NCBI GenBank assembly: GCA_902826215.1
Contig: CADEDY010000004.1
Location: 68,667-132,666, forward strand
Direction of reading: 5' to 3'
From: an uncultured Bacteroidota bacterium
Lineage (GTDB): Bacteria > Bacteroidota > Bacteroidia > Flavobacteriales_F > PHOS-HE28
Length of the DNA: 64,000 nucleotides
Positions 492 through 49,700 of this stretch are shown piece by piece. Every line of letters begins with the position of its first letter. Position 1 is the stretch's first letter. A program made the position numbers and the translations under genes. The notes under the pieces are model-generated. The model was not told where the DNA came from. It ran no database searches and saw nothing but the letters and a program-made list of their open reading frames with translations.

Positions 492-2426
492 ATGTTCCGG
501 TATGCACTTCTGCTCGGCCTATTGTTCACCTCGCACCTGACCACCCACGCACAACAGGATGACCCCGACCACAGCCTTGCACCGCATTTCATCGTTCGCG
601 ATAGCACAGGCGCCCCGATAGAGGGCATCGACCTTCCCTTGATCTCGACACGCGCTGAAGTGCGGATCATCGGAACGATCGCGAATGTGACCATCCACCA
701 GTCCTATCGCAACGATCATCCCTCAAAACTTCAAGCCGAATACGTCTTTCCGGCGAGCACCCGTGCCGCTGTCCATGGCATGACGATGCGCGTCGGTGAG
801 CGCGTGATCGAAGCAAAGGTGAAGGAACGCGAAGAGGCCAAGAAGGAATTCGAGGAAGCACAGAAGGCGGGTAAGAAAGCGTCACTGCTCGAGCAGCACC
901 GGCCGAACGTATTCCAGATGAGTGTGGCCAACATAAGCTCGGGGATAGCGATCGACGTGGAGCTGCGGTACACCGAGAACATCATCCCGGAAGAGGGTGT
1001 GTACGAATTCATCTACCCCGTGGTGGTTGGCCAACGCTACGATGCCGGGCCACACGCATCCAACGAGAAATGGGCCCAGAATCCGCACACACAAACCTTG
1101 CAAAAGGACTTCGCTCAAGCTCGCCCGCGATTCGACTTCCACGCTACCATCGACGGTCCCTTGCCACTGAAGGACGTAGTGGTCCCGACCTACCCGTGCG
1201 ACATCACCTTTCCGAACGCGCAGCAAGCGGAGATCACCTTGAAGTCCAACGGCGCTAAGCATGACCATAACAATGACCTTGTGCTCCGATACCGGCTGAG
1301 CGATGAAGCCATCTCCACAGGTCTACTCACTGGCAGTAGCGGTGGCGAGAGTTTCTTCCTCCTGATGGCGGAGCCACCGAGGCGAGTACAAAGCACGCAA
1401 GTGGTGCCGCGCGAGTACGTGTTCATTCTTGATGTTTCGGGTTCCATGAACGGGTACCCGATCGACGTGGCGAAGAAAATGATGAAGCGGCTGTTCCGCG
1501 ACTTGCGTCCTCAGGACAAGTTCAATGTCATCCTCTTCGCAGGTGGATCAAGTCAATTGGCCGAGCGATCTCTGCATGCTACACCCGACGAACTGGCCGA
1601 AGCGTTCAGTTTTATTGCACAGCAGACCGGAAAAGGGGGAACAGAACTCCTGCCTGCCCTGGAGCGCGCCTTGAAGATCCCGCGTACCGAGGGCATTTCC
1701 CGCAGTTTCGTGATCGTGACGGATGGTTATGTCACCGTTGAGCGCGAGGCGTTCCAGCTGATCCGCGAGAACCTCGGGAATGCCAACGTATTTCCCTTCG
1801 GGATCGGGACGAGCGTGAACCGCTACTTGATCGAAGGATTGGCTCGTGCGGGACAGGGGCAGCCATTCATCGTGCTGGGTCAGAACGAAGTGGATGAAAC
1901 GGCCGAACAATTCGCGCAGTACGTGGAGGCGCCGGTGCTCACCGATATCTCCGTGAGCTATGAGGGTTTCGAGGTGGCCAAGGACGCCCCTGTGCACGTC
2001 GCCGACCTCTTCGCACAACGCCCGATCACACTGTATGGCAAGTACACGGGCAAGACCACAGGCATCATCGTCGTTCGCGGCACCACGGCTTCTGGAGCGT
2101 ACGAAAAGCGCATCGATGTGGCTTCCGCAACAGCACCCAAGGATGCCGATGCCCTGCGCTACCTGTGGGCACGGAACAGGATAGCGGAACTCGATGATGA
2201 CCAACAAACGACCAATGATGAGGACACCAAGGAGCGCATTGTCGAGCTCGGATTGAAGTACAACCTGCTCACCCGCTTCACGTCCTTCATTGCTGTGGAA
2301 GAGGACAAGGAGGTTGAAGAAACGACGATGCCTCCTGGTGCCGTTCCCGAGCCCCACGAATGGGCCATGATCGTGCTGGCCGGCCTCACGCTCCTATGGT
2401 TCGTACATCGTCAGCGCGCGGCTTGA
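492..2426 (+). CDS. XrtN-system VIT + von Willebrand A domain protein with a C-terminal PEP-CTERM sorting signal
   Basis: N-terminal signal peptide (MFRYALLLGLLFTSHLTTHAQ). A VIT-like region comes next, then a vWA MIDAS motif (VFILDVSGSMNGYPI...FNVILFAGGSS). The extreme C-terminus is VPEP-HEWAMIVLAGLTLLWFV-HRQRAA, i.e. PEP motif, TM helix and basic tail, the classic exosortase recognition signal. Confidence 0.85.
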   Translation: MFRYALLLGLLFTSHLTTHAQQDDPDHSLAPHFIVRDSTGAPIEGIDLPLISTRAEVRIIGTIANVTIHQSYRNDHPSKLQAEYVFPASTRAAVHGMTMRVGERVIEAKVKEREEAKKEFEEAQKAGKKASLLEQHRPNVFQMSVANISSGIAIDVELRYTENIIPEEGVYEFIYPVVVGQRYDAGPHASNEKWAQNPHTQTLQKDFAQARPRFDFHATIDGPLPLKDVVVPTYPCDITFPNAQQAEITLKSNGAKHDHNNDLVLRYRLSDEAISTGLLTGSSGGESFFLLMAEPPRRVQSTQVVPREYVFILDVSGSMNGYPIDVAKKMMKRLFRDLRPQDKFNVILFAGGSSQLAERSLHATPDELAEAFSFIAQQTGKGGTELLPALERALKIPRTEGISRSFVIVTDGYVTVEREAFQLIRENLGNANVFPFGIGTSVNRYLIEGLARAGQGQPFIVLGQNEVDETAEQFAQYVEAPVLTDISVSYEGFEVAKDAPVHVADLFAQRPITLYGKYTGKTTGIIVVRGTTASGAYEKRIDVASATAPKDADALRYLWARNRIAELDDDQQTTNDEDTKERIVELGLKYNLLTRFTSFIAVEEDKEVEETTMPPGAVPEPHEWAMIVLAGLTLLWFVHRQRAA

Positions 2427-3790
2427 TGGTCTTGCGCGGATCCATCCTTACTTCCGGAAAGTGGCGTGCAGGGCTCCTTTGTGTCGTGCTCTTCCTCTGT
2501 CTCTGGCCTGGACTGAGCGACCACGTGAGCGTGGAATGGGGCATGCGCTACTTCTGGCTCCTGCTACTACCGGTGATCATACGTGTCCGTGAGCCAGGGA
2601 ACTTTTCCTTGCGCTACCTCTTCGTCCTCGCTCCTTTGTTCGCGCTGGCTTTCTGGCTGCCACATCCGCTGTTCCGATTCGGTGTGCTGTTCGCTGCGAT
2701 CTTCCTGGTGATCGAAGCCTTCGTGGGCAAATTGGATCGCTTGGCTCCGGTCTTTGCTGTCCTCGTGGCACCCATCACCCATTACTTCATCAACACCTTC
2801 GGGTTCCACGTGCGATTGAGCATCAGCAAGGTCGTCGCTCGAACATTGAAGAGCATCGACCCGGAGGCGATGGACATCGGCAATGCGCTCATGTACCAGG
2901 GGCAGGAATTCCATGTGGACCCGGAATGCATGGGACTTCGGATGATCACCACTTCCTTGATCGTGACCATGGCGCTCATCGCCCTCCGCGAAAGACGCTT
3001 GAAGACCTCGCTTTCCGAGTTCGCGCTACCTGTTCTCCTGCTCGTGACCTTCGTGTTGGTCGCCGTTTCGAACTACGTGCGCATCCTACTGTTGGTGGTC
3101 AGTGCCGCGCCTGCGGGTGGTTTCTGGCATGAAGTCATCGGGTTGATCAGCTGGCTGCTCTTCGTGTTGCTACCCATGATCCACATTGTGGAGCGTTGGG
3201 ACCGGGTTCGATCCGTTGCCTCAATGACCAAGACCGTGTGGCCGATCTGGAAACAACGTCTTGTCACCACCGCGCTTCTCCCGACCATGCTGGTCGGGAT
3301 GATCCACCCGGTGGTACCAGTGGAGGATGAACGCGACCTCTTCGCTGAGCAATTGAACATACCCGGCTGTGAACGGACCATCCTTCCCAACAACGTGGTG
3401 AGCTTCACCAGTGATCATCTGCAGATCTTCATGAAACCCGGAAAGGCATTCTACAGCAACGACCACCACCCGATGAGCTGTTGGATCGGGAGTGGCTACC
3501 ACTTCACGCACGAAGTCCTCGAACCCTTCCGTGATGGCACGATCTGCTTCGGGCAATTGAGCAATGGCGCATCCACACGGTACTCCGCATGGTGGTATGA
3601 CAATGGTTCCACCCGCACCTGCGGTCAGTTGGAGTGGCGTTGGCTTGCCGCACTTGGCGAAGGTCCGTTCCGGTTGATCAATGTCACGGCCGACACGCCT
3701 CAAGAATTGATGCGGGAGGTATCGCGGCTTTACCGACCGTTGGAGGCTGAAGGGCACCTACTGAAAGGAACGCAGATGACGCTGATGTAG
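2426..3790 (+). CDS. Exosortase (XrtN-like) with a ~170-aa Cys/Trp/His-rich C-terminal extension
   Basis: Polytopic membrane protein (about 8 TM). It contains the exosortase catalytic motif ECMGLRMITTSL (Cys-x-Gly-Leu-Arg), and conserved Arg/His lie downstream. The ATG at 2426 overlaps the TGA of the upstream VIT gene (TGATG), indicating translational coupling. The six-frame track starts the ORF at 2360, but 2426 avoids the gene overlap. Confidence 0.8.
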   Translation: MVLRGSILTSGKWRAGLLCVVLFLCLWPGLSDHVSVEWGMRYFWLLLLPVIIRVREPGNFSLRYLFVLAPLFALAFWLPHPLFRFGVLFAAIFLVIEAFVGKLDRLAPVFAVLVAPITHYFINTFGFHVRLSISKVVARTLKSIDPEAMDIGNALMYQGQEFHVDPECMGLRMITTSLIVTMALIALRERRLKTSLSEFALPVLLLVTFVLVAVSNYVRILLLVVSAAPAGGFWHEVIGLISWLLFVLLPMIHIVERWDRVRSVASMTKTVWPIWKQRLVTTALLPTMLVGMIHPVVPVEDERDLFAEQLNIPGCERTILPNNVVSFTSDHLQIFMKPGKAFYSNDHHPMSCWIGSGYHFTHEVLEPFRDGTICFGQLSNGASTRYSAWWYDNGSTRTCGQLEWRWLAALGEGPFRLINVTADTPQELMREVSRLYRPLEAEGHLLKGTQMTLM

Positions 3791-3870
3791 CGGATCAACG
3801 CTGATCCGCTCAATCCCTCTCTATCTCAGATCTGCGCTCATCAAAACGATCCGCGTCATCCGTGTTCCAT
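3790..3870. repeat. Copy of the ~45-bp 'GAACGC-GATGACGCGGATC' intergenic repeat family, preceded by a near-palindrome GCGGATCAACGCTGATCCGC
   Basis: The sequence tcatcaaaacgatccgcgtcatccgtgttccat is the reverse complement of atggaacacggatgacgcggatcgttttgatga. This matches the copies at 7888, 7968, 8421, 9328, 9444 and 10279. Confidence 0.6.
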
Positions 3871-3871
3871 C

Positions 3872-4315
3872 CTACTCCCCGATATCCTCGTTCCACAGCT
3901 CCGGCTCGGCTGCGATGAACTCCTCCATCATCTGCACACACTCCGGCAGGTTCAGGTCGATCACCTCCACGCCGTGGCTCTCCATGAAGGCCTTGGCACC
4001 AGCGAATGTGCGGCTCTCGCCCACGATCACCTTCTTGATCTTGAACTGCACGATGGTGCCCGCGCACATGTAGCAGGGCATCAGCGTCGAATAGATCGTG
4101 GTGCCCTTGTAGCTGCCGATGCGGCCCGCGTTGTTCAGACAGTCCATCTCGCCATGCAGGATCGGGTTCTTCTCCTGCACGCGCTTGTTGTGCCCCCGTG
4201 CGATGATCTTGCCGTCGCGCACCAGCACCGAGCCGATCGGGATACCGCCCTGTGAACGGCCCAAGCGGGCTTCGTCGATGGCGGCTTGCATGTGGGGGTC
4301 CATGGTGTAGGTCAT
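3872..4315 (-). CDS. CDA-fold nucleoside deaminase, Fcy1-like; probably a cytosine deaminase feeding the pyrimidine catabolic pathway
   Basis: Zinc-ligand motifs HGE (…NPILHGEMDCLNNAG…) and PCYMCAG. About 147 aa, comparable to the ~158-aa yeast Fcy1 as recalled. Located inside the pyrimidine-catabolism operon. Confidence 0.7.
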   Translation of the reverse strand: MTYTMDPHMQAAIDEARLGRSQGGIPIGSVLVRDGKIIARGHNKRVQEKNPILHGEMDCLNNAGRIGSYKGTTIYSTLMPCYMCAGTIVQFKIKKVIVGESRTFAGAKAFMESHGVEVIDLNLPECVQMMEEFIAAEPELWNEDIGE

Positions 4316-4584
4316 TTATCCGTTACATCAGCCCGAAGCACTCCAGCGTCATTCTTTCCACACATGCCGCAATACTCGGACTCATTCTTCTTGTTGTCAC
4401 ACCACTTACATCCCTTCGGATTCTTCAATGGAAATAGATGAACTATGAAGTAGCCGAATATGGGCGTGGCCAAGACGCAAATGGCCAAGGCCCCTGCAAA
4501 ACCACATGTTCGCGGTCGTCCATCCTGCCACGCCATCCCAACAACTAAGACAAGGAAAATGACACCTATGATGTAGTCCATCAA
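4312..4584 (-). CDS. Small membrane protein with a C-terminal CxxC..CxxC zinc-ribbon (hypothetical)
   Basis: Two predicted TM helices are followed by CKWCDNKKNESEYCGMCGK. Its stop overlaps the start of the deaminase (ATGA), and it sits between preA and the deaminase gene. Confidence 0.45.
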   Translation of the reverse strand: MMDYIIGVIFLVLVVGMAWQDGRPRTCGFAGALAICVLATPIFGYFIVHLFPLKNPKGCKWCDNKKNESEYCGMCGKNDAGVLRADVTDK

Positions 4585-4597
4585 ACTTGTGATCTGG

Positions 4598-5947
4598 TTA
4601 CCCTTTGTAGTGCCTTGGCTTCTTCGTCACCAACGCCTCCGCTGGCTCCGGCACCCAATGATGCAGCCCACCAGCCAGCGGATCGTCAAACGTCTTCGGA
4701 ATGTTCCCTGCCGCCGTGCGCTCACCCCAAGTCAGTTGCTCCTTGCCGTCATCGCGGCGCTCCATGGTGATGCACTCTTCCACCGGACAAACGATGGAGC
4801 AGAGGTTGCAGCCCACGCAGTTCTCCTCGATGATGCTCGGAATGCGGATCAGCGGGTCGCTGGATAGACCGATGGCCTGGTGCGCACCGTCCTCGCAGGC
4901 GGTGTAGCACAGCTGGCAGCCGATGCACTTGTCGGCGTTGATCTCCGCGACGACCTTGTACTTCAGGTTGAGGTCCTCCCAATGCACGATGTTCGGCAGC
5001 GCCTTGCCCCGGAAATCATCCAAGGTCTTGAAGCCCTTCTCGTCCATGTAGCGCTCTAGGCCTGACTTGAGATCGCGGATGATGCCGAAGCCGTAGTGCA
5101 TGACCGCAGTGCAGACTTGCACCGAGGTGGCACCGAGCAGAATGAACTCCGCCGCATCGCGCCAGTTCTCGACACCACCTATACCGCTGATGGGTATTCC
5201 CACTTGCTTGTCCTGCGCACAGTTCTTCAGCATGTTCAAGGCGATCGGCTTCACGGCCGGACCGCAGTAGCCGCCGTTCGTGCTCTTGCCATCCACGTTG
5301 GGGTATGGCACGAAGGTGTCCAGGTCCACGCCCACCACACTTTGGATGGTGTTGATCAAGGAGATCGCATCGCTCCCACCAGCCCTGGCCGCGCGCGCCG
5401 GACGCGTGATATCCGAGATGTTCGGTGTGAGCTTCGTGATCACGGGGATCTTGGCCACTTCCTTCACCCACTCAACAATGGTCTGCAACACCTTCGGCTC
5501 CTGCCCCACCGCGCTGCCCATGCCGCGCTCGCACATGCCGTGGGGGCAACCGAAGTTCAGCTCGATGCCATCGGCGCCAGCGTTCTCCACGTCGCGGACG
5601 ATCTGGTGCCATTCCTCCTTCGTCTCCACCATCAGCGAGGCGATCACCGCATGGTCAGGGAAACGCTTCTTCACCTCGCTGATCTCGCGCAGGTTGTCCT
5701 TTAACGGCCGGTCGGTGATCAGCTCGATGTTGTTGAAACCCACCATGCGCTTGTCCCGGTAGTTCACAGCGCCGTAGCGGCTGCTGACATTCACCACTGG
5801 CACGCCGAGGGTCTTCCACACGGCACCGCCCCAGCCCGCGTCGAAGGCTTTCATGATCTGGTAGCCGCTGTTCGTGGGTGGCGCGGAGGCCAGCCAGAAA
5901 GGGTTCGGGGATTTGATACCGGCGAGATTGGTTCGGAGATCGGCCAT
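4598..5947 (-). CDS. preA: NAD-dependent dihydropyrimidine dehydrogenase subunit PreA (DHOD-like TIM barrel + 2x[4Fe-4S])
   Basis: N-terminus MADLRTNLAGIKSPNPFWLASAPPTN. FMN/DHODH-like core (GADGIELNFGCPHGM). Two C-terminal ferredoxin motifs, CIGCQLCYTACEDG and CVGCNLCSIVCPVEEC. Confidence 0.9.
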   Translation of the reverse strand: MADLRTNLAGIKSPNPFWLASAPPTNSGYQIMKAFDAGWGGAVWKTLGVPVVNVSSRYGAVNYRDKRMVGFNNIELITDRPLKDNLREISEVKKRFPDHAVIASLMVETKEEWHQIVRDVENAGADGIELNFGCPHGMCERGMGSAVGQEPKVLQTIVEWVKEVAKIPVITKLTPNISDITRPARAARAGGSDAISLINTIQSVVGVDLDTFVPYPNVDGKSTNGGYCGPAVKPIALNMLKNCAQDKQVGIPISGIGGVENWRDAAEFILLGATSVQVCTAVMHYGFGIIRDLKSGLERYMDEKGFKTLDDFRGKALPNIVHWEDLNLKYKVVAEINADKCIGCQLCYTACEDGAHQAIGLSSDPLIRIPSIIEENCVGCNLCSIVCPVEECITMERRDDGKEQLTWGERTAAGNIPKTFDDPLAGGLHHWVPEPAEALVTKKPRHYKG

Positions 5948-5949
5948 TT

Positions 5950-5986
5950 GATTAGCTGATTAGCTGATGTGACGATTAGCTGATGG
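5950..5986. repeat. Left terminal inverted repeat of the four-helix-bundle gene cassette (GATTAGCTGAT x3)
   Basis: gattagctgat-tagctgat-gtgac-gattagctgatgg. Its reverse complement, CCATCAGCTAATC, recurs at 6549-6561. Confidence 0.65.
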
Positions 5987-6000
5987 TTGGCGGGCGACAG

Positions 6001-6528
6001 CTACTTGGTGGACTTCGTTCGTTCGATCAAACGTTGCTTACTCGTTCCGATGATCTTATTGAGGATGCGCATGACACGTTGGATGCGGGCGATGAGGTCC
6101 TCATCAATGCCTTTGTCTTGGGTCGCGGCGATGAGGTAATACCAATATTCGGCTTCGTCGGCTTCCTTCAACGCGATCTTCAGCTTGTGAATGAAGTCCT
6201 TCAGGCTTTCGGCATTCTGGGCTTCCTTGGAATTCGCTCCTGGCGAACATGCCGACCGCTCGAACTGGTCGATCAACCATGCGCGCTCACAACCGAGTTG
6301 GTTCACGAATCGGATTGTGCGAACGGACAATTCAAAAGTCTCCTTGAGCAGCAGGTTCTCGCGATACAACGGGCTACCGGAATAGCTGGCCTGCGGCTCG
6401 TGAGCGACCATTGCGTCAAGCTGCTCCACACGATCTTCCTCGATCACAGCATCGCAGATCGCCAGCCAATCGGAGCGATCCCCAGTGATAAACTCATCAT
6501 GCTCTTCCATCATGCCAGGCATTTTCAT
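6001..6528 (-). CDS. Four-helix-bundle protein (TIGR02436-like; 23S rRNA intervening-sequence protein family) inserted between preT and preA
   Basis: The C-terminal half, SKEAQNAESLKDFIHKLKIALKEADEAEYWYYLIAATQ, matches the hallmark of this family. A possible shorter start lies at the ATG at 6411-6409 (MVAHEPQ...). Confidence 0.75.
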   Translation of the reverse strand: MKMPGMMEEHDEFITGDRSDWLAICDAVIEEDRVEQLDAMVAHEPQASYSGSPLYRENLLLKETFELSVRTIRFVNQLGCERAWLIDQFERSACSPGANSKEAQNAESLKDFIHKLKIALKEADEAEYWYYLIAATQDKGIDEDLIARIQRVMRILNKIIGTSKQRLIERTKSTK

Positions 6529-6561
6529 CAGCTGATCCGCTAATCATCCCATCAGCTAATC
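6527..6561. repeat. Right terminal inverted repeat of the four-helix-bundle cassette (ATCAGCTGATCC...CCATCAGCTAATC)
   Basis: It is the reverse complement of the left-hand GATTAGCTGATGG. It contains the cassette gene's start codon (6526-6528) and the preT stop codon (6560-6562). Confidence 0.65.
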
Positions 6562-7882
6562 ACTTCCCCAAGTAGGTATCGATCCCATGCGCCGCCTTCT
6601 TCGCTTCAGCCGCCGCGTTCACCACTTCCACACCACCGTTCATCGCATCCCCTGCAGTAAAGTATTTGGCGTTGGTCGTTTGGAAGCGCTCATTCACCAC
6701 GATGCGCCCTTTCTGATCCAACATGAGGCCTGAGACCTGCTTCAACAGTTCCACTTGTTTTCCTTGACCGGTCCCCAGCAACACCATATCACAAGGTTCC
6801 AGGAACTCGCTGCCCTTGATGGCTTCCAGCTTCCCATTGGCGGAACTGTTCCGGATGAACTTGACCCCGGTCACGGAGCCATTGCCCATCACTTCAACGG
6901 GCGTCACATTGAACAGTGCCTTCGCACCGCTCTTCTTCGCCAGATCGAACTCGAAGGTGTACGCACCCATCTCTTCCGGACCACGACGATAGGCTATCGT
7001 CACGCTCTCCGCGCCCATCCGGCAGCTTTCGCTCGCGGCATCCATCGCTGTGTTTCCGCCCCCGAGCACGATCACCTTGTTGCCGACCGGCGTTGCTTGG
7101 TGCTTGTTCCGCAGTACTTCCACGAACTCAAGCGCACCCATCACGCCTTTCTTGTCTTCGCCGGGAATGCCTAGCGCCGAAGTGCCGCCCAAGCCGATGC
7201 CGATGAAGATGGCGTCATAGTCCTTCTCCAAGCGCTCAAAGTCAACACGACCGGTCACTGGCTTGTTGTAGTGGGCGTTGAAACCGAACTGCTCCTGCAA
7301 GTAAGCGATCTCATCAACCGCTTCTTCGTTGGTGAGCTTGTACGGTGCGACGCCATAAACACACAAGCCACTTGGCTTTTCGCGCGCCTCGTAGATATCC
7401 ACCGCGTGGCCCAACATCCGCAATTCACACGCACAGGAAACACCCGCTGGCCCCGCACCGATCACAGCTACCTTCTTGCCTGTCGGCTTCCCGGTGATGA
7501 AGAGCTTCTTCTTCGCGTGGATCACCTTGTCCGTGGCATGTGCCTGCAAGCGCCCGATCTCGATCGGCTTCACATCGCTTTTGGTGTACACGCAGGCCCC
7601 TTCGCACAGTTCCTCCGTCGGACAGACGTTCCCGCAGGCATGTCCCATCCAGTTGCTGTCGTAGATCGTCTTCGCGGCCCCGTCCTTGTTGTCGTTGTTG
7701 ATCTGCCGGATGAAGGTCGGGATATCGATCCCCGTGGGGCACGCGTTGATGCACGGCGCATCGTAGCAATACAGGCAGCGCGAACTCTCGTAGTACGCCT
7801 CGGTATCGCTCATCAGCGGCTTCTTCGGGTGGAAGTTGGCTGTGAACTCGGCTTCGGTGGTGGGTCGTTTGTATTCTGCCAT
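6560..7882 (-). CDS. preT: Dihydropyrimidine dehydrogenase subunit PreT (glutamate synthase small-subunit-like, FAD/NAD(P) + [4Fe-4S])
   Basis: MAEYKRPTTEAEFTANF...YCYDAPCINACPTGIDIP...CGNVCPTEELCEGAC, followed by Rossmann motifs VAVIGAGPAG and VIVLGGGNTAMD. The six-frame track starts this ORF at 8110, but the 76 codons upstream of 7882 merely translate the tandem DNA repeat, so the start is placed at 7882. Confidence 0.88.
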   Translation of the reverse strand: MAEYKRPTTEAEFTANFHPKKPLMSDTEAYYESSRCLYCYDAPCINACPTGIDIPTFIRQINNDNKDGAAKTIYDSNWMGHACGNVCPTEELCEGACVYTKSDVKPIEIGRLQAHATDKVIHAKKKLFITGKPTGKKVAVIGAGPAGVSCACELRMLGHAVDIYEAREKPSGLCVYGVAPYKLTNEEAVDEIAYLQEQFGFNAHYNKPVTGRVDFERLEKDYDAIFIGIGLGGTSALGIPGEDKKGVMGALEFVEVLRNKHQATPVGNKVIVLGGGNTAMDAASESCRMGAESVTIAYRRGPEEMGAYTFEFDLAKKSGAKALFNVTPVEVMGNGSVTGVKFIRNSSANGKLEAIKGSEFLEPCDMVLLGTGQGKQVELLKQVSGLMLDQKGRIVVNERFQTTNAKYFTAGDAMNGGVEVVNAAAEAKKAAHGIDTYLGK

Positions 7883-7887
7883 GGGGA

Positions 7888-7934
7888 ATGGGACGCAGAT
7901 GGCGCGGATCTTTATGATTTCCGCTGATATGATT
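7888..7934. repeat. ~47-bp repeat element, copy 1 of a tandem pair with 80-bp period (gggacgcagatggcgcggatctttatgatttccgctgatatgatttg)
   Basis: Direct repeat of 7968-8015. Member of the GATGACGCGGATC family. Lies immediately upstream of the preT start. Confidence 0.7.
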
Positions 7935-7967
7935 TGTCGGTGTGGTGCGTGGGGTGCTTCATGCGAT

Positions 7968-8015
7968 GGGACGCAGATGACGCGGATCTTTATGATATCC
8001 GCTGATATGAGTTTG
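7968..8015. repeat. ~47-bp repeat element, copy 2; left inverted repeat of the GxxExxY cassette
   Basis: gggacgcagatgacgcggatctttatgatatccgctgatatgagtttg. The reverse complement of its core is found at 8421-8449. Confidence 0.7.
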
Positions 8016-8409
8016 TATGGACCTTCCTTTTGACTTGGGGCTTCTTGCCGAAGTTCAGGAGCAAGCCGACTTCCACATCGGTGGCTTTGAGGTAGTTGAT
8101 CAACTGGCACTCGTGCTCTTCGCAGATGCTCTCCGCAGCTTTGAGTTCCACGATGACCAGTCCCTCGACGATAAGGTCGGCATAGTAGCTACCGACCTCC
8201 ACGCCATCATAGAACACCGTGATCGGTTGTTGACGCTTTACCTCGAGCCCAGCGGAGATTAACTCATGGAACATGGCGTTCTCATAGACCTTTTCCAAAA
8301 ACCCGTAGCCCAAGGCGTTGTAGACCTTGTAGAACATCTGAATGACCTGCTCGGTCAGTTCAGAATGCATGTAGTTCTCTTTATTCAGATCAGGCATGGC
8401 AATTCGCAT
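7990..8409 (-). CDS. GxxExxY protein (TIGR04256-like, PD-(D/E)XK-related) inserted between the beta-ureidopropionase gene and preT
   Basis: YKVYNALGYGFLEKVYENAMFHEL ... VIVELKAAE ... GLLLNFG match the family signature. The 3' end of the ORF runs into repeat copy 2. Confidence 0.75.
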   Translation of the reverse strand: MRIAMPDLNKENYMHSELTEQVIQMFYKVYNALGYGFLEKVYENAMFHELISAGLEVKRQQPITVFYDGVEVGSYYADLIVEGLVIVELKAAESICEEHECQLINYLKATDVEVGLLLNFGKKPQVKRKVHTNSYQRIS

Positions 8410-8420
8410 TGATCCGCGCT

Positions 8421-8449
8421 CATCATAAAGATCCGCGTCATCAGCGTTC
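8421..8449. repeat. Right inverted repeat of the GxxExxY cassette (catcataaagatccgcgtcatcagcgttc)
   Basis: It is the reverse complement of gaacgctgatgacgcggatctttatgatg, which is copy 2 at 7968. Confidence 0.7.
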
Positions 8450-9315
8450 TACAACTCCGTCAGCCGTCCATACGTCTCCGGCCTCCGATCCCTGAAGAAC
8501 TGCCATGTGCTCCGCACCTCCTCGATCATGTCCAGGTCGAATTCTGCGACGAGCAGTTCATCGTCATCACGCGAGGCTTGCTTGAAGATCTGTCCGCGCG
8601 GATCCACGAAGTAGCTCTGCCCATAGAACTTGCCGAGGTTCCAAGGCTTCTCCTCCCCTACACGGTTGATGCAGCCCATGAAGTAGCCGTTCGCCGCAGC
8701 GTGCGCGGGTTGCTCCAGCTTCCAGAGGTATTCGCTGAGACCAGCCACGGTGGCGCTGGGGTTGTAGACGATCTCGGCACCGTTGAGGCCAAGGCAACGC
8801 GCGCCATCGGGGAAATGGCGGTCGTAGCAGATGTACACGCCCACCTTGGCGTACTTCGTCTGGAACACCGGATAGCCGAGGTTGCCGGGCTTGAAGAAGA
8901 ACTTCTCCCAGAAACCGCTCGTGTGCGGGATGTGGTTCTTGCGGTACTTGCCCAGGTAGGTGCCATCCGCATCGATCACCGCGGCGGTATTGTACAGCAC
9001 GCCGGCCTGCTCCTTCTCGTAGATCGGAACGATGATCACCATGTTGTACTTCTTCGCGTACTGCGCCATCAGCTCCGTGGTGGGACCGGGCACGCTCTCC
9101 GCGCTCTCGTACCATTTCCGGTCCTGGCCCGGGCAGAAGTAGGGCGTGTTGAAGATCTCCTGCAAACACAGGATCTGCACGCCTTGCTGGCCGGCCTTCT
9201 CGATGTACGGGATGTGCTTCTGCACCATCGCATCGATGATCTCCGGTATGGTGCCTTCGCCCTCCGTCTTAGGGAGGCTCATCTGGATAAGGCCGCTCTT
9301 GATGTTCCTCGGCAT
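8449..9315 (-). CDS. Beta-ureidopropionase (N-carbamoyl-beta-alanine amidohydrolase), nitrilase/CN-hydrolase superfamily
   Basis: CN-hydrolase fold with the catalytic Glu-Lys-Cys context (…ILCLQEIF…, …YRKNHIP…, …VGVYICYDRHFPD…). Sits in the pyrimidine-catabolism operon. Confidence 0.85.
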   Translation of the reverse strand: MPRNIKSGLIQMSLPKTEGEGTIPEIIDAMVQKHIPYIEKAGQQGVQILCLQEIFNTPYFCPGQDRKWYESAESVPGPTTELMAQYAKKYNMVIIVPIYEKEQAGVLYNTAAVIDADGTYLGKYRKNHIPHTSGFWEKFFFKPGNLGYPVFQTKYAKVGVYICYDRHFPDGARCLGLNGAEIVYNPSATVAGLSEYLWKLEQPAHAAANGYFMGCINRVGEEKPWNLGKFYGQSYFVDPRGQIFKQASRDDDELLVAEFDLDMIEEVRSTWQFFRDRRPETYGRLTEL

Positions 9316-29891: not shown

Positions 29892-32800
29892 TTAGTGGGT
29901 CCGACGGGTAGGAATGGCGCGCATCAGTCGAGGGAAGACCTCGGCATACAGTGTTGCAGCTAGCAACAGCGCCATACCCCAAAGCACGAGCACATTGGCC
30001 CAAAGCGTCGGTATGCGGATACCAACAAGCCATTTTGCCGGTGCGTAGAAGTGCGCGCCGAAGAAACCATTCTCCACGGGCTCGAGATAGATCGGATCGC
30101 TTTTCTGAACGAGTTCCCCTTTGTCCACCACGATCACATTCACATCGTTCTTATTGGTCACCACGTCGGCAAGGCTCTCGTTGCGGTAGGAGTCGAGAAG
30201 CATGAAGTAGTTCGTTCGAAGTTCAGGAGTAGCGGTCATTTCGGCGATGCGTTTCTCCTTATCCGCTTCTGCAACCTTGTAGGTATTCCGGAAATGCTGT
30301 GTGAGCAGTTCCAAACTGGACTCCACCTCAACGAGCAGATCCGGTGTCACTTTCTCAGGGTTCAGTTCTTGGAGCCTGTCGAAACGGAATCCACTGATCT
30401 GCTTTTGGGCTTTGGTCAATTCTCCACGGATCAATTGAAGCTCGAACGATACATCCACCCCCTCAGGATGCCCATTGATCGCCCTGCGCACGTTGCCTAC
30501 GCTGTTCTCCAATTCGCGTACCCAAAGATCCTTCTTCCAATTGGCCGATTTCATGCGCTGATCCATCCCATAGAACAGACGCTCGTAGTCATTGTCCATG
30601 AACTGCGTTACGGCGAGGCCTTCGTACGCCCATCGCGAGGCCATCACATTCCCAAGCAAGGGCACACTGCGCTCAGATGCGAACCACGGATGCAGTTTAT
30701 CGAATTTGACGATGATACCACTGAAGAGAAGCTGCGGAATGATGAGCACCGGGATCATGATGTAGATCACTTTGGCGCTGTTGAAACTGGCGCTGACATT
30801 CAGGCCGAGCACATTGGCGAAACAAGAAGTGCTGAACAACAACAGCCAATGCTGCATATGCAGCCCGTGTATGCCCAATACCCCATGTCCGACAAGCACG
30901 AAAAGGAATGTCTGCATCGCGGAGATAAGGAAGAGGATCCCGATCTTACTGAGCAGGTAGCTCATCCAGCTTAGGTCAAGGAATTTCTCGCGTTGCAGGA
31001 TCTTGCGGTCACGGATGATCTCCTCAGCGCTCACGGTCAGTCCTAGGAAAAGGGCCACGATCACTGCGATGAACAAATATTGCGGGATGTTGTCGTTCTG
31101 GCGAAAGATGTAAGTCCCCGCTGTACCGTGTCCTACCCGATAGAACTTCAGGAAGAACGCCATCAAGAAAGCAAGCGCTGGTGCTTCGAGCAAATTGATG
31201 AGGACGTACTGACGATTGGCCAATTTGCTGAGTAGGTCACGTTTGAAATAGACCTTGAGCTGCCGGAGCTTGTCGGGTACGGCGAAGGTGCTCTTGGGCA
31301 CGCTTCGTTCCTCTGCTACCAGTGCAACACGACCATCCATCTGCGCGCGGAACACTTCATTCCAAGCCTCTGGACTGATGCGCCGCTGATCGGTCTCGTT
31401 ACCGTACTCGTCCACCAACTTGGCTTCGAGGATATTGAAGATCTGTTCGGGATTCACGTTCCCGCACGCGCCGCATTGGCCCACCTCGCTGTTCACCTGG
31501 CCGGTGACACGCTTGAAGTAGACCACGGCATCCACTGGATCGCCGTAATAGACAGGATGCCCTTCCTGATCCATGAGCAACAACCGATCGAAGAGCTTGA
31601 AGATGTCCGATGAGGGTTGGTGGATCACCACGAACACCAGCCTGCCCTTGAGCGCGAGCTCCTTCAGCAGATCCATGATGTTCTCGGAATCACGGGAACT
31701 GAGGCCACTGGTGGGCTCATCCACGAACAATACACTCGGCTCCCGGATGAGTTCCAACGCGATGTTCAAACGTTTGCGCTGGCCGCCGCTGATGGTCTTC
31801 TCCAGTGGGCTGCCCACCTTCAGGTCCTTGGTCTCATACAGACCAAGCGTTTGAAGCATGCGCAATACGCGCTCTGCCACCTGCTCGTTGTTCTGATCGC
31901 CGAAGCATAACTTGGCATTGTAGAAGAGGTTCTGGAAGACCGTGAGTTCCTCGATAAGCAGATCGTCCTGGCTTACGTGCCCGATCACACCGCGAATGCG
32001 GGCACGCTCCGAATGAACATCAATACCGTTGATGGTGACGTGTCCACGGCTCGGTTTCAGATTACCGTTGAGTATGTTCAGCAGGGTGCTCTTACCGCTC
32101 CCGCTCCCGCCCATGATGCCGATCAGCTTTCCACCGGTCTCTGCCAGCTTCAATTCGTGAAGACCCAATCGTCCGTTCGGGAAAGCATACTCGATGGCAT
32201 CCGCCTTGAAAACGATCCGAGACCGGCCGCCCTTGTTCATGAAGGCGCCGAGGATGTCGCTGTAATAGATGGGGGCACCATTCGGTGGCCGTACGCTCGT
32301 ACCATTGCTGAGAACGTAGTGGCTGTCGTTGCCCATGCGCTGACCGTTCAGGAGCACTTCGTCCTGCCCGGTGTAACGCATCACGTACAAATTCACACTC
32401 GGCACATGGAGCACACGGAGTTCACCTTGCAACCCGTGTGCATGGATGTGACGAGCCTTGTCCATCCCGTTCTGAACGGCAGCGTCGATGTACAGCAAGT
32501 TCGCCGCGTCCACGCGCTCGGACTGTTGCGTTTCGACGAACCGACGACATTGCGCGAAATCCTCCTGACCGATGTTGAAGGTCTCTGCAACGGTGGAGAC
32601 GAACTCGGCCTCCTGCTCGGACACTTCATCGTTGGAGCGAATGAATTCCAAGAGATGGACAAGCACCACGAACTTCTGATGTTGGTTGAGCTCTTCGTTG
32701 ACCTGCGTGCAGATCTTGAGAACCTTCACCGAATTGAGCGAAGTTCGCTTCCGTCCGCTGCGGCTTTGACCACCGCTCGCATGGAACGCCTGCACGAAGG

Positions 32801-32966
32801 CCTGATAGCGTGCCATATGGGCCGCAGCCAGTTCAGAACTGAACTGCTTCCGCAGGAACCGCTCCAGGATCGCCGCATTGTCCGGACGCGCACCTTCGGC
32901 CACGGCATCGCCTTTGGCGATGATGGCGAACAGTTGCAGTAAAGCCTTGAGTATCTTCTCGCTCAT
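29892..32966 (-). CDS. FHA-domain-containing ABCG-type (ABC-2) transporter: N-terminal helical domain + FHA-like + ABC ATPase + 6-TM permease
   Basis: Walker A GGSGSGKST. ABC signature ISGGQRKRLNIA. Walker B LFVDEPTSGL. FHA-like GNDSHYVLSNGTSV. C-terminal ABC-2 membrane domain. Start at MSEKILKALL (32966). Confidence 0.8.
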   Translation of the reverse strand: MSEKILKALLQLFAIIAKGDAVAEGARPDNAAILERFLRKQFSSELAAAHMARYQAFVQAFHASGGQSRSGRKRTSLNSVKVLKICTQVNEELNQHQKFVVLVHLLEFIRSNDEVSEQEAEFVSTVAETFNIGQEDFAQCRRFVETQQSERVDAANLLYIDAAVQNGMDKARHIHAHGLQGELRVLHVPSVNLYVMRYTGQDEVLLNGQRMGNDSHYVLSNGTSVRPPNGAPIYYSDILGAFMNKGGRSRIVFKADAIEYAFPNGRLGLHELKLAETGGKLIGIMGGSGSGKSTLLNILNGNLKPSRGHVTINGIDVHSERARIRGVIGHVSQDDLLIEELTVFQNLFYNAKLCFGDQNNEQVAERVLRMLQTLGLYETKDLKVGSPLEKTISGGQRKRLNIALELIREPSVLFVDEPTSGLSSRDSENIMDLLKELALKGRLVFVVIHQPSSDIFKLFDRLLLMDQEGHPVYYGDPVDAVVYFKRVTGQVNSEVGQCGACGNVNPEQIFNILEAKLVDEYGNETDQRRISPEAWNEVFRAQMDGRVALVAEERSVPKSTFAVPDKLRQLKVYFKRDLLSKLANRQYVLINLLEAPALAFLMAFFLKFYRVGHGTAGTYIFRQNDNIPQYLFIAVIVALFLGLTVSAEEIIRDRKILQREKFLDLSWMSYLLSKIGILFLISAMQTFLFVLVGHGVLGIHGLHMQHWLLLFSTSCFANVLGLNVSASFNSAKVIYIMIPVLIIPQLLFSGIIVKFDKLHPWFASERSVPLLGNVMASRWAYEGLAVTQFMDNDYERLFYGMDQRMKSANWKKDLWVRELENSVGNVRRAINGHPEGVDVSFELQLIRGELTKAQKQISGFRFDRLQELNPEKVTPDLLVEVESSLELLTQHFRNTYKVAEADKEKRIAEMTATPELRTNYFMLLDSYRNESLADVVTNKNDVNVIVVDKGELVQKSDPIYLEPVENGFFGAHFYAPAKWLVGIRIPTLWANVLVLWGMALLLAATLYAEVFPRLMRAIPTRRTH

Positions 32967-46357: not shown

Positions 46358-46772
46358 GCGCTGGAGCCGAAGATAGATGGCTTAATGTTCAACCTCGAAG
46401 CCTCCTCTATTCGTCAAGGAGGATGACAGAAGCCGAATTGCTCCGGCAGATCATCGCTTCATGGGGTCCATAGCCACTATCCTAAACACAGCTATCGACG
46501 ATAAAACAACGTTCATCGACAATCAGGACTCATCCATGCATACCGGACAAACTCCGACAAGTTGACCGGATTCAGGTATATCTACTTGATATTCAGAACA
46601 TTAGCCCTACAATACCCCACTTCTTTCGCCCAATGGTCAATTCGCACTTGAACGATATTGGTCGACGATATTTAGACATTCATGGGATGTATTTTGAACT
46701 TGGACGACATAAAGGGCTTGACAAATGAATGTCACTTCTCTCAAATTGCATTCAGAAACACGAAAAACAAGT

Positions 46773-49700
46773 TACATGAAGCACTCTCCTCATCAATCGT
46801 TACTAAGCAGTATCTGTTCGCGGATCCTGTTAGTGGCTGGTCTGTTCTTGGCGCAGATCGCCGAAGCTCAAGTTGTGAGCACATTTACAAGCTCTGGCAC
46901 GTTCACGGTACCTGCGGGTGTAAGCCAGGTGACCGTTGAATGCTGGGGTGCAGGTGGCCGCGGTGGGATGCGCACGAACAATGGAAGAGGCGGTGGAGGT
47001 GGAGGAGGTGCCTATTCACGCTCGGTGATCTCGGTCATTGAAGGAAATTCGTATACGGTTACGGTGGGTAGTGGTAGCTCTGATACCGACCCAGGTGAAG
47101 ACTCTTGGTTCGGCACCGCCACCACGGTCATGGCCAAAGGTGGTGCATCGGCTGGCAACAATAGTTCCAGCGGAGCCAATGGCGGTAGCGCCGGAGCTTC
47201 TATCGGAACGGTGAAATTCAGTGGTGGAAATGGCGCGAATGCACCTGGCAGTACGGGTGGCGGAGGAGGATCCTCAGCCGGTACCGCAACGAACGGCGCC
47301 AATGGCAGTAACCAATCCGGTGGTAATGCACCAGCTGGGGGTGGGGATGGTGGAGATGGCGGAAATGGAACATTTGACGCTGGCGATGCGGGTAGTGTTC
47401 CTGGTGGTGGTGGTGGTGGCGCAGAGCGCGGCTGCTGTATCACTGTGAATGGTGGTGCCGGTGCCAATGGCCGCGTTATCCTGACCTATACACCCTGCAG
47501 CGGACCCATTGTGTCCGTTCTGCCAAGCGCCCCATCGATCTGTAGTGGTTCAAGCATAGTGCTAACAGCCTCTGGTGCAAGTGCTGGATACACTTGGTCT
47601 CCAGCTATTGGTCTTAGTGGAACTAGCGGTGCAGTAGTTACGGCCAACCCGACCACGACCACGACCTATACTCTTACCGGTACGAATACGGGATGCTCGA
47701 TCACGGGGTCTGCCACAGTGACCGTGACTGTTGATGAGGCGCCTACGGCCCCGGTGATGAGCCCGACGAGTGTCACCACTTGTTCTGGTTCGTCCACTGT
47801 GCTGGGTGCAGCCTCTAGCACGAACGCAACGCTGTCCTCCTCACCGTTCAACAGTACAGGCGGACCAGCTACGACAACCACTGGAGCGGCCCAAAATGCC
47901 TCTATCTATCCTTGGAACATCAGCGTGAGCGGCTTACCGACCACTGGAGTCACCGTTGAATCCGTAACGATCAACGGCATTACGCACACCTTTCCGGATG
48001 ACCTGGACATTCTACTTCAGTCTCCAACTGGCACGAACGTGATCTTGATGTCTGATGCTGGAGCAGGAGATAACATCACGGGCCTTACATACACCTTCAA
48101 GGACGGAGAAGTGTCACTTCAGGACGCTGTCACCAACCCGAGCGGAACTTACAGCCCATCGAACTACACCGGCACAGGCGATGAAACATGGTCAGCACCG
48201 GGTCCAGGGGGATTAACTCAACCTAGCCCTGCTTTGTCCATGTTCACTGGGAACGTGAATGGCGTATGGAAACTCTTGATCCGTGATGATGAAACTGGAG
48301 ATGCTGGTTCCATCGGAAGTTGGAGCATCACCTTCACGATACCCGCGACCGTATCCTACACCTGGAGCCCCAATGTCGCGTTGAGCAGTACAACAGGTCC
48401 TAGTGTAACAGCTTCACCAACAAGTGACCAATCCTATACGGTAACTGTGTCGCACAACGCGAACGGGTGCACAAGTCAAGGTACGGTGGTTGTCACAGCA
48501 GTAGCGCTTCCTGATGCCGGAAGCAATGGCACCATGGCCATCTGCAGCAACGGTGCTGCGATCGGTCTTCTCTCCCAATTGGGCGGCTCACCTGACGTTG
48601 GTGGCACGTGGTCCGGTCCGAGTGCGGTGATCAGCGGGCTGTACGACCCTTTGACAATGGATCCTGGTACTTATACCTACACGGTTACAGCAGCACCTTG
48701 CACGAACGCCACCGCCGATGTGGTCGTCTCCGAGAACATGGCTACCGCATGGTATGCAGATGATGATGGCGATGGTTTCGGCGACGTCGGCGATGTGCTT
48801 ATGGCTTGCTCGCCTCCTGTAGGGTATGTGGCCAACAACACCGATTGCAACGACAGCCAGATCACTTACGCCGACGCAGATGGCGACGGATTCGGAGCAG
48901 GCGCCCCTACCCCATGTGGTGTGGCGAACAACAGTGATTGCAATGATTCCGCGATCCTTCACGCCGACGTGGACGGTGATGGATTCGGGGCTGCAGCCAA
49001 CGCGCCATGCGGCATAGCGGACAACAGTGATTGTGACGATATGCAATTCCTGTATGTGGATGGCGATGGTGATGGCTACGGAACAGGAGTACCGGTCGCA
49101 TGCGGTGTTCCGAATAACACCGATTGCAACGACACCCAGATCCTCTATGCTGACACCGATGGTGATGGCTACGGGGCCGGAGCACCTGCCGCGTGCGGTG
49201 TGACGAACAACGGTGACAACTGCCCGAATATCGTTGGACTCCAAGGCGATTACTGCGACGTGAACAACGGCTCTGGTCCGTTCCTCTTCGGTCAGATCAA
49301 TGGCAGTTGCCAGTGTGTTGCCGTTCCATGCACCGAAACAGTGACCATGGAGCTACGCACCGATGCGTTGAGCAGTCAAGCTTCTTGGCAGATCCTGTTG
49401 CAAGGCACCAACCAGGTTGTTTGCCAGTTCAGCATTCCGATCAATGGCATCACGAGCCCGATAACCGATAACTGCTGCTTGCCCGTTGGTTGCTACCGAC
49501 TGCGTGTGAACGATAGCGGTGGAGATGGTTTCGTAAGCGGTGGCATCACCGGTGGCTATCAACTGCGTGAAAGCGGACCGACCGGAAGTCGTATCATCGA
49601 CAACCTCGGCAACTTCACCAGCGGATCGACCAGTGCTTTATCATCGACCTATGGCGATGGCGCATTCTGTGTACCCGTTGGAAGCGACCGTCCGATCTTC

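Follow-up and report, generated by a model that had tools for sequence, protein, structure and literature searches.

An Exosortase N Gene Coupled to the Gene of Its Probable VIT-vWA Substrate in an Uncultured Bacteroidota Bacterium

Two-Gene Locus and Its Boundaries

Within a 64,000-nucleotide stretch of contig CADEDY010000004.1 from an uncultured Bacteroidota bacterium (assembly GCA_902826215.1, positions 68,667 to 132,666; in the following referred to as the window), two co-directional open reading frames (ORFs) are located on the plus strand. The first one (492-2426, stop codon included; 644 amino acids (aa)) encodes a VIT-vWA protein predicted to be secreted and to carry an exosortase N (XrtN)-type C-terminal sorting signal, hereafter called the cargo. 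The second one (xrtN, 2426-3790; 454 aa) encodes the XrtN enzyme itself. Both ORFs exist as described in the original prediction, which had been made from the letters of the window. The stop/start overlap TGATG reported there is likewise real and one base long, since the cargo stop codon TGA (2424-2426) and the xrtN start codon ATG (2426-2428) have the A in common. In the program-made ORF list, the start of the second gene was placed at position 2360; however, position 2426 is the better start, because position 3 of the XrtN family model TIGR04476 aligns at about residue 16 of the product beginning there, and because public gene calls from three independent assemblies give the identical 454-aa protein (P0001/P0156).

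Upstream of the pair, a terminator-like hairpin on the plus strand (361-388; 12-bp stem with 10 G-C pairs, followed by a T-run, TTTTCATT) is positioned between the cargo start and the preceding gene, which ends at position 339 and encodes a tail for secretion by the type IX system (T9SS). Judging by its terminator-like structure, the hairpin would separate the two-gene unit from upstream transcription. On the other side, the downstream gene, encoding a cytidine deaminase (3872-4315), is convergent. With the hairpin delimiting the pair upstream and the convergent gene delimiting it downstream, the two genes appear to form an autonomous operon. A sigma-70-like promoter was not detected at the locus, which is expected for Bacteroidota and uninformative, and Rfam families gave no match between positions 1 and 4600. 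Furthermore, no exopolysaccharide genes flank the pair. Antisense ORFs within the locus (e.g., 1548-2357 on the minus strand, 269 aa) yielded no significant Pfam match (best E-value 0.036, far below the family cutoff) and were rejected as genes, being regarded as by-products of the GC content of 57%.

The Exosortase N Enzyme

Compared with the NCBIfam model TIGR04476 (exosortase N), the xrtN gene product reached 269.7 bits (cutoff 200), the match extending from position 3 to position 406 of the 406-position model, while the next-best subfamilies, XrtO and XrtT, scored approximately 30 bits each. The Pfam exosortase core (PF09721) was located at aa 19-249, and the C-terminal 176 aa alone still obtained 94.4 bits on TIGR04476 positions 282-406. 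By these profile matches, the enzyme is to be regarded as a bona fide member of the curated, but unpublished, exosortase N family.

An alignment of 19 XrtN sequences with identities down to 24% (A1) revealed the invariant core residues R130, D165, C168, G170, L171, N216, R219, and H235. Exosortases and archaeosortases are considered to be proteases, possibly transpeptidases, with Cys, Arg, and His as their presumed catalytic triad (Haft 2023 preprint; CrtB model), and C168, R219, and H235 of the window enzyme correspond to this triad in the alignment. The catalytic region extends from 2927 to 3130 on the plus strand, with codons for Cys168 at 2927-2929, Arg219 at 3080-3082, and His235 at 3128-3130, all three being invariant in A1. 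The earlier designation of the second gene product as "XrtN-like" is therefore borne out by a score above the curated cutoff in combination with the retained Cys, Arg, and His residues. The active-site motif C-x-G-L-R, which had been proposed along with it, held in part: the segment ECMGLR with Cys168 is present, but its arginine (R172) is not conserved, the corresponding column of the XrtN family alignment being occupied by R, K, N, L, H, or G, so the catalytic arginine had been misassigned.

A confident AlphaFold2 model of XrtN was obtained from A1 (mean pLDDT 83.3, pTM 0.77). Considering this model together with hydropathy and the positive-inside rule, the N-terminus would be cytoplasmic, Cys168 would lie at the periplasmic start of a transmembrane (TM) helix, just past a beta-hairpin loop, and R219 and H235 would be placed close to where the two helices that follow end on the periplasmic side. 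The ninth helix (aa 274-292) is predicted to lead the chain to a periplasmic alpha/beta domain (aa ~305-425; 3338-3700 on the plus strand). This C-terminal domain features the invariant motifs H347-x-P-x-x-C352-W-x-G-x-G, W389-W-x-D, and W404-R; the residues invariant in A1 are H347, P349, C352, W353, G355, G357, W389, W390, D392, T398, W404, R405, and N419. It is a separable module: a Hyphomicrobium metagenome-assembled genome (MAG; locus L055) encodes the same H...C.xG.G motif on a protein of its own, comprising 178 aa. An EpsI-like identity (PF11984/TIGR02914), which was considered for the XrtN C-terminal domain, was supported by neither Pfam nor NCBIfam for the window domain, for other XrtN and XrtO-like proteins, or for the separate L055 protein. 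Foldseek comparison of the model with the PDB returned no match at E ≤ 0.001 and hence no solved core structure of an exosortase or archaeosortase.

Body of the Cargo Protein

The cargo starts with a predicted Sec signal peptide (492-551 on the plus strand; aa 1-20, MFRYALLLGLLFTSHLTTHA, followed by QQ), which was read from the sequence and does not contain a lipobox cysteine; homologues of the cargo retain a similar N-terminus. A VIT domain (645-971 on the plus strand; aa 52-160; PF08487, 118.5 bits, 2e-34) and a vWA domain (1419-1862 on the plus strand; aa 310-457; PF13768 (VWA_3), PF00092 (VWA), and PF13519; 1.6e-20) follow, in agreement with the earlier description of a 644-aa secreted VIT and vWA protein. 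The metal ion-dependent adhesion site (MIDAS) of the vWA domain is intact (D314-x-S316-x-S318, T383, and D411). A conserved stalk (...LGLKYNLLTRFTSFIAVEE) precedes the tail, and hydropathy analysis detected hydrophobic segments only in the signal peptide and the C-terminal helix. A 100% identical cargo protein (P0032) is encoded on a 207-kb NCBI contig. In the PDB, relatives of the VIT-vWA region by sequence are PARP4 (7.7e-34), ITIH4 (6.8e-22), and ITIH1.

The best NCBIfam match of the cargo was TIGR03788, the marine proteobacterial sortase target, with 417.5 bits over aa 52-611. Taken by itself, this match could suggest that the cargo is such a target, handled by a sortase encoded elsewhere. 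However, the score remains below the cutoff of 551.65, the match ends before the tail, and no LPXTG-like motif (LPx[TSA]G) was found in the cargo. Furthermore, an exosortase is what the neighboring gene encodes, and T9SS domains point to the Bacteroidota as the phylum of the organism. The absence of LPXTG together with the sub-threshold score refutes this identity, and we give it practically no credence.

The cargo body is 46-50% identical to VIT-vWA proteins ending in TonB-C, OmpA, or classical PEP-CTERM; the VIT-vWA proteins resembling it (about 48% identity) bear these ends or LPXTG elsewhere. It is a soluble, adhesin-like protein of the widespread bacterial "vault-like" VIT-vWA family that has acquired an XrtN-class tail. 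Publicly, cargos of this class are only named "VWA domain-containing protein".

The C-Terminal Sorting Tail

The sorting signal occupies positions 2337-2423 on the plus strand (aa 616-644) and consists of G616-AVPEPHEW, followed by AMIVLAGLTLLWFV as TM helix and HRQRAA as basic end. Its GAVPEPHEW-AMI segment represents the same signature as the tail of canonical XrtN cargos, e.g., SGAVPEPHEWALI in L004 and L001. The "textbook" PEP-CTERM signal of the original prediction has to be specified accordingly: the tripartite layout of PEP motif, TM helix, and basic end is present, but the tail is an XrtN-class variant, G[AS]VPEPHEW, that generic models miss. Likewise, the profile comparison proposed for both proteins gave a divided outcome. 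Whereas the enzyme passed the exosortase N model, the cargo obtained only 20 bits on TIGR04477 (XrtN-system VIT protein; cutoff 250), with the match being restricted to aa 615-641 (model positions 794-820), i.e., to the tail.

Among 15 cargos of the vWA type, which were found by homology of their bodies, PEPHEW and the glycine at position -3 (G-3) were invariant in all cases. G-3 was also invariant in 56 canonical cargos, making 71 tails in all; for PEPHEW, in contrast, the search pattern predetermined the residues in the canonical cargos.

Comparison with Canonical XrtN Systems

In the canonical loci L001 (marine Flavobacteriales) and L004 (Vicingaceae), the gene upstream of xrtN encodes a protein of 841-843 aa reaching 770-879 bits on TIGR04477. 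In Pfam, these cargos only feature a VIT domain, and they end in SG[SA]VPEPHEW[VA]LI. Approximately six N-terminal hydrophobic segments were deduced from hydropathy for the canonical cargo (counted in L004). Profile-profile comparison of 15 vWA-type with 56 canonical cargos using hhalign resulted in a probability of 98.4% (E-value 6.6e-15), with confidence being high for VIT as well as for stalk and tail, and low in between, where canonical cargos contain a degenerate YLDINKSW in place of the DxSxS of the vWA type. The two cargo types are therefore distant relatives having VIT, stalk, and tail in common.

The window pair resembles the canonical pair in several respects: the enzyme belongs to the same family above cutoff, including the C-terminal periplasmic domain, xrtN is immediately preceded by the cargo gene, a VIT domain is present in both cargos, the stalks in front of their tails are homologous, and the tail follows the scheme of G[AS]VPEPHEW, TM helix, and basic end. 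In contrast, the window cargo comprises 644 aa instead of approximately 840 aa, features a cleavable signal peptide where the canonical cargo has a polytopic N-terminal region of approximately 300 aa, and possesses an intact vWA/MIDAS site (DVSGS...T...D), which is degenerate (YLDINKSW) in the canonical cargo. Hence, the locus is an uncommon variant of the known XrtN system, set apart by the body of its cargo, and not a new system.

Distribution of the VIT-vWA/XrtN Pair

To evaluate the prevalence of the tail, GTDB representative genomes were scanned for DNA encoding [VIM]PEPHEW[AVTIM]xI, which yielded at least 120 loci. Canonical cargos accounted for 105 of the 120 matches listed, with XrtN directly downstream in 98 of them and most of the others being cut by the end of the sequence piece. 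Three matches represented the VIT-vWA type with XrtN (L032 from a Chitinophagaceae MAG, L056, and L058 from a Flavobacteriales MAG), and another three featured a different or cut-off cargo beside an exosortase (L070 of the TIGR02921 type, L072 with a polytopic VIT protein, and L020, whose cargo is cut by the end of the piece). For the remaining nine, mostly non-Bacteroidota, XrtN was not detected in the sequence piece. Each contig among the 120 matches listed contained one PEPHEW tail and no genome occurred twice; a contig of 5.2 Mb and a complete chromosome of 3.4 Mb were among them.

Besides the window, the VIT-vWA/XrtN pair recurred in ten loci from metagenome contigs and MAGs (L127-L132, L134, L135, L056, and L058). 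Since these loci are independent and related, the pair is not a chance feature. In L127, L128, L129, L130, L134, and L135, the two genes either overlap by up to 4 nt or are up to 6 nt apart, and a gap of 95 nt was called in L131. Because the flanking genes differ between distant relatives, the pair travels as a unit. The Bacteroidota context of the window is indirectly supported by its T9SS sorting domains (Por_Secre_tail) and by the closest named relatives, which are Flavobacteriales and Chitinophagaceae MAGs.

An exhaustive HMMER search (E ≤ 1e-30) recovered 395 XrtN-like clusters at 50% identity. Tree support was confined to the close XrtN clade of the window (≥58% identity), which was recovered in 200 of 200 neighbor-joining bootstrap replicates. 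Monophyly of all vWA-linked XrtN enzymes, which had been suggested by a first neighbor-joining tree, did not hold, as it appeared in none of 200 replicates when more sequences were included. P0161, a near XrtN neighbor having a canonical cargo, nested among distant vWA-type XrtN enzymes in the bootstrapped tree.

Probable Dedication of the Enzyme to a Single Substrate

Taken together, the locus probably represents a self-contained two-gene operon, in which an intramembrane cysteine protease/transpeptidase of the exosortase N family is encoded along with a one-to-one substrate. The private exosortase of the original prediction fits the data, its dedication to one target being supported by the conserved coupling of the genes, by the absence of any second PEP-CTERM-like tail from the 64 kb of the window, and by the finding of one tail per contig among the matches listed. 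Adjacency of sorting enzyme and target was described to occur mainly in one-to-one systems, and a survey of rhombosortases found no multi-target genome featuring such adjacency (Haft, PMC3237569). These reports, together with the enzyme-target pair being strictly adjacent and often overlapping in relatives that are approximately 30% to 100% identical, and with the single tail even on the sequences of 3.4 Mb and 5.2 Mb, argue against XrtN being a general exosortase that serves several scattered PEP-CTERM proteins, with the adjacent VIT-vWA gene merely representing one client. Many exosortases, such as XrtA and CrtB, do act in a one-to-many manner, and tails were inspected over 64 kb of this genome, but we nevertheless consider a general exosortase very unlikely.

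Several points weigh against the dedicated two-gene system. The cargo fails TIGR04477, the curated model of XrtN targets, and the generic PEP-CTERM models TIGR02595 and PF07589 did not match its C-terminal 141 aa, even at E ≤ 10. Moreover, the tail count for this organism covers the 64-kb window, and other substrates may be encoded elsewhere in the genome. A route over the outer membrane is not evident for the cargo, and its cleavage site, acceptor, and final location are proposed by analogy with related enzymes. Finally, neither an XrtN experiment nor a mention of XrtN or exosortase N was found in the literature searched.

Proposed Processing of the Cargo

The chemistry of exosortases, i.e., the place of cleavage, the attached group, and the destination of the product, is not known to have been worked out for any enzyme from bacteria. 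All steps of the mechanism outlined here are inferences based on established features of the superfamily. The VIT-vWA protein would be exported by Sec via its N-terminal signal peptide, and its C-terminal helix would tether it to the inner membrane, with the HRQRAA end in the cytoplasm. XrtN would then recognize the G-A-V-P-E-P-H-E-W motif abutting the helix at the periplasmic face, and Cys168, helped by Arg219 and His235, would cleave there and thereby remove the anchor. In analogy to archaeosortase A (ArtA), sortases, and other exosortases, the acyl-enzyme might be resolved either by water, leading to periplasmic release, or by a lipid or glycan nucleophile, leading to covalent re-anchoring. 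The mature protein may act as a metal-dependent binding or adhesion module of the cell envelope; metal dependence of ligand binding is suggested because the MIDAS site is intact.

Alternatively, the C-terminal helix could be a permanent, uncleaved anchor, with the exosortase homologue serving as a partner or scaffold or acting on a different, non-protein substrate. Cleavage is not known to have been demonstrated for XrtN, and the canonical cargo is itself a polytopic membrane protein for which release would be unneeded. However, the Cys/Arg/His triad is invariant, and so is the motif adjacent to the helix (PEPHEW in 15 of 15 vWA-type cargos, G-3 in 71 of 71 tails). The occurrence of the same tail on otherwise dissimilar bodies likewise fits a recognition site for an enzyme and not a passive anchor, and a permanent anchor is therefore deemed very unlikely compared with the proposed cleavage of the cargo by XrtN.

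Relation to Other Sorting Systems

The marine proteobacterial sortase and its LPXTG VIT-vWA target (TIGR03784/TIGR03788) resemble the window pair regarding the VIT-vWA architecture of the cargo (417 bits) and the arrangement of one sorting enzyme with one adjacent target in a Gram-negative organism. They differ from it in phylum, in the sub-cutoff score, in the signal, which is of the PEP type in the window instead of LPXTG, and in the enzyme, a polytopic exosortase being unrelated to sortases. Homologous "vault-like" VIT-vWA proteins were reported to end in GlyGly-CTERM, classical PEP-CTERM, or LPXTG (Haft & Varghese 2011, PMC3237569, Figure 3C). The proteins with TonB-C, OmpA, and classical PEP-CTERM ends described above add to these tail swaps, whereas the XrtN-class VPEPHEW tail on a VIT-vWA body and its pairing with XrtN are not among the documented combinations.

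The TIGR02921/XrtO-like and the alphaproteobacterial polytopic VIT/XrtQ-like systems (L070, L027, L055, L057, and L072) likewise combine the VPEPHEW tail with a VIT domain and a neighboring exosortase, but their cargos are polytopic proteins of 800-950 aa, and the enzymes belong to other exosortase subfamilies. TIGR02921 "PEP_integral" proteins with VPEPHEW ends were found in L070 (Chitinispirillaceae MAG, 3126-7462) and L027 with 607 and 378 bits, respectively; in L070, the gene of an XrtO-like exosortase (208.9 bits, cutoff 250) is located upstream of the cargo gene, so that the order seen with XrtN is reversed. The tail also occurs on polytopic VIT proteins of alphaproteobacteria, namely in L055 (5036-6453), L044, L057, and L010. 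In L055, a 294-aa XrtQ-like exosortase core (117.8 bits, cutoff 270) is followed by the separate 178-aa protein with the H..C.xG.G motif, the part that is fused to XrtN in Bacteroidota. Apparently, this exosortase subfamily is not covered by the models and is split over two genes.

The comparison shows that the VPEPHEW tail, and not the protein body, tracks with these exosortases. Because the tail also occurs on TIGR02921 proteins accompanied by XrtO-like enzymes and on alphaproteobacterial polytopic VIT proteins accompanied by XrtQ-like enzymes, it is not exclusive to XrtN, but common to a super-group of exosortases dedicated to VIT proteins.

Eukaryotic ITIH heavy chains and PARP4 are VIT-vWA homologues detectable by sequence and have solved structures. 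ITIH heavy chains are cleaved near their C-terminus, just past the stalk, which is conserved, and an ester bond links the resulting C-terminus to a glycan. They are processed by entirely different machinery; the parallel is an analogy. Speculatively, the G[AS]VPEPHEW and TM tail of approximately 30 residues could serve as a portable address tag that is sufficient by itself and is recognized by a super-group of dedicated exosortases (XrtN, XrtO-like, and XrtQ-like), all of which carry or adjoin a Mog1/PsbP-like domain with the motif H-x-P-x-x-C-W-x-G-x-G. These enzymes would attach VIT-family proteins covalently, through the C-terminus newly formed, to a glycan or lipid of the envelope and would thus represent the bacterial counterpart of ITIH heavy-chain cleavage and esterification. 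We regard this extended proposal as unlikely.

Further Features of the Window

T9SS type A C-terminal sorting domains (Por_Secre_tail) are encoded at 142-339 and within 46725-50783, the latter on a 1352-aa Gly-rich/P-domain protein. Because of these domains, the organism is considered to have a T9SS beside the exosortase system; the XrtN cargo itself does not contain a T9SS domain.

Downstream of the pair, two small minus-strand ORFs, 6001-6528 (PF05635, 23S_rRNA_IVP four-helix bundle) and 7990-8409 (PF13366, PDDEXK_3), are each bracketed by inverted repeats of 36-37 nt (5949-6562 and 7971-8447, respectively), with an additional copy of the repeat being located at 7888-7935. They are inserted in a cluster for reductive pyrimidine catabolism consisting of a preA-like gene (4598-5947), a preT-like gene (6560-7882), and a CN_hydrolase gene (8449-9315). 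In the related locus L127, these intergenic slots are occupied by other cassettes of small size (HEPN/NTP_transf_2, HicA, and 23S_rRNA_IVP), which suggests that the bracketed ORFs are small mobile or insertion-prone cassettes.

Between the deaminase gene and the preA-like gene, a 90-aa minus-strand ORF (4312-4584) encodes one hydrophobic N-terminal segment and a CxxC...CxxC arrangement (CKWCDN...CGMCGK). It did not match any Pfam family, and an 89-aa gene was called at this place in the public assemblies L005 and L006. Furthermore, a 1024-aa protein encoded at 29892-32966 on the minus strand features an N-terminal TerB domain fused to an ABC ATPase and an ABC-2 permease.

Conclusions

For the annotation of such systems, the results show that an entire class of XrtN cargos escapes the curated target model TIGR04477, which is useful for the curation of profile models. 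Otherwise, the locus is a correct and unsurprising instance of a database-defined system and would be no surprise to a specialist. Canonical XrtN substrates are polytopic proteins of approximately 840 aa and hard to handle, whereas the variant provides a one-enzyme, one-substrate pair whose secreted, soluble-domain substrate has eukaryotic homologues with solved structures. This pair would therefore be more practical for C-terminal proteomics or in vitro reconstitution. If the tail should indeed act as an address tag for covalent transfer, the soluble substrate of the variant would be the first tractable one for reconstituting the chemistry of exosortases.

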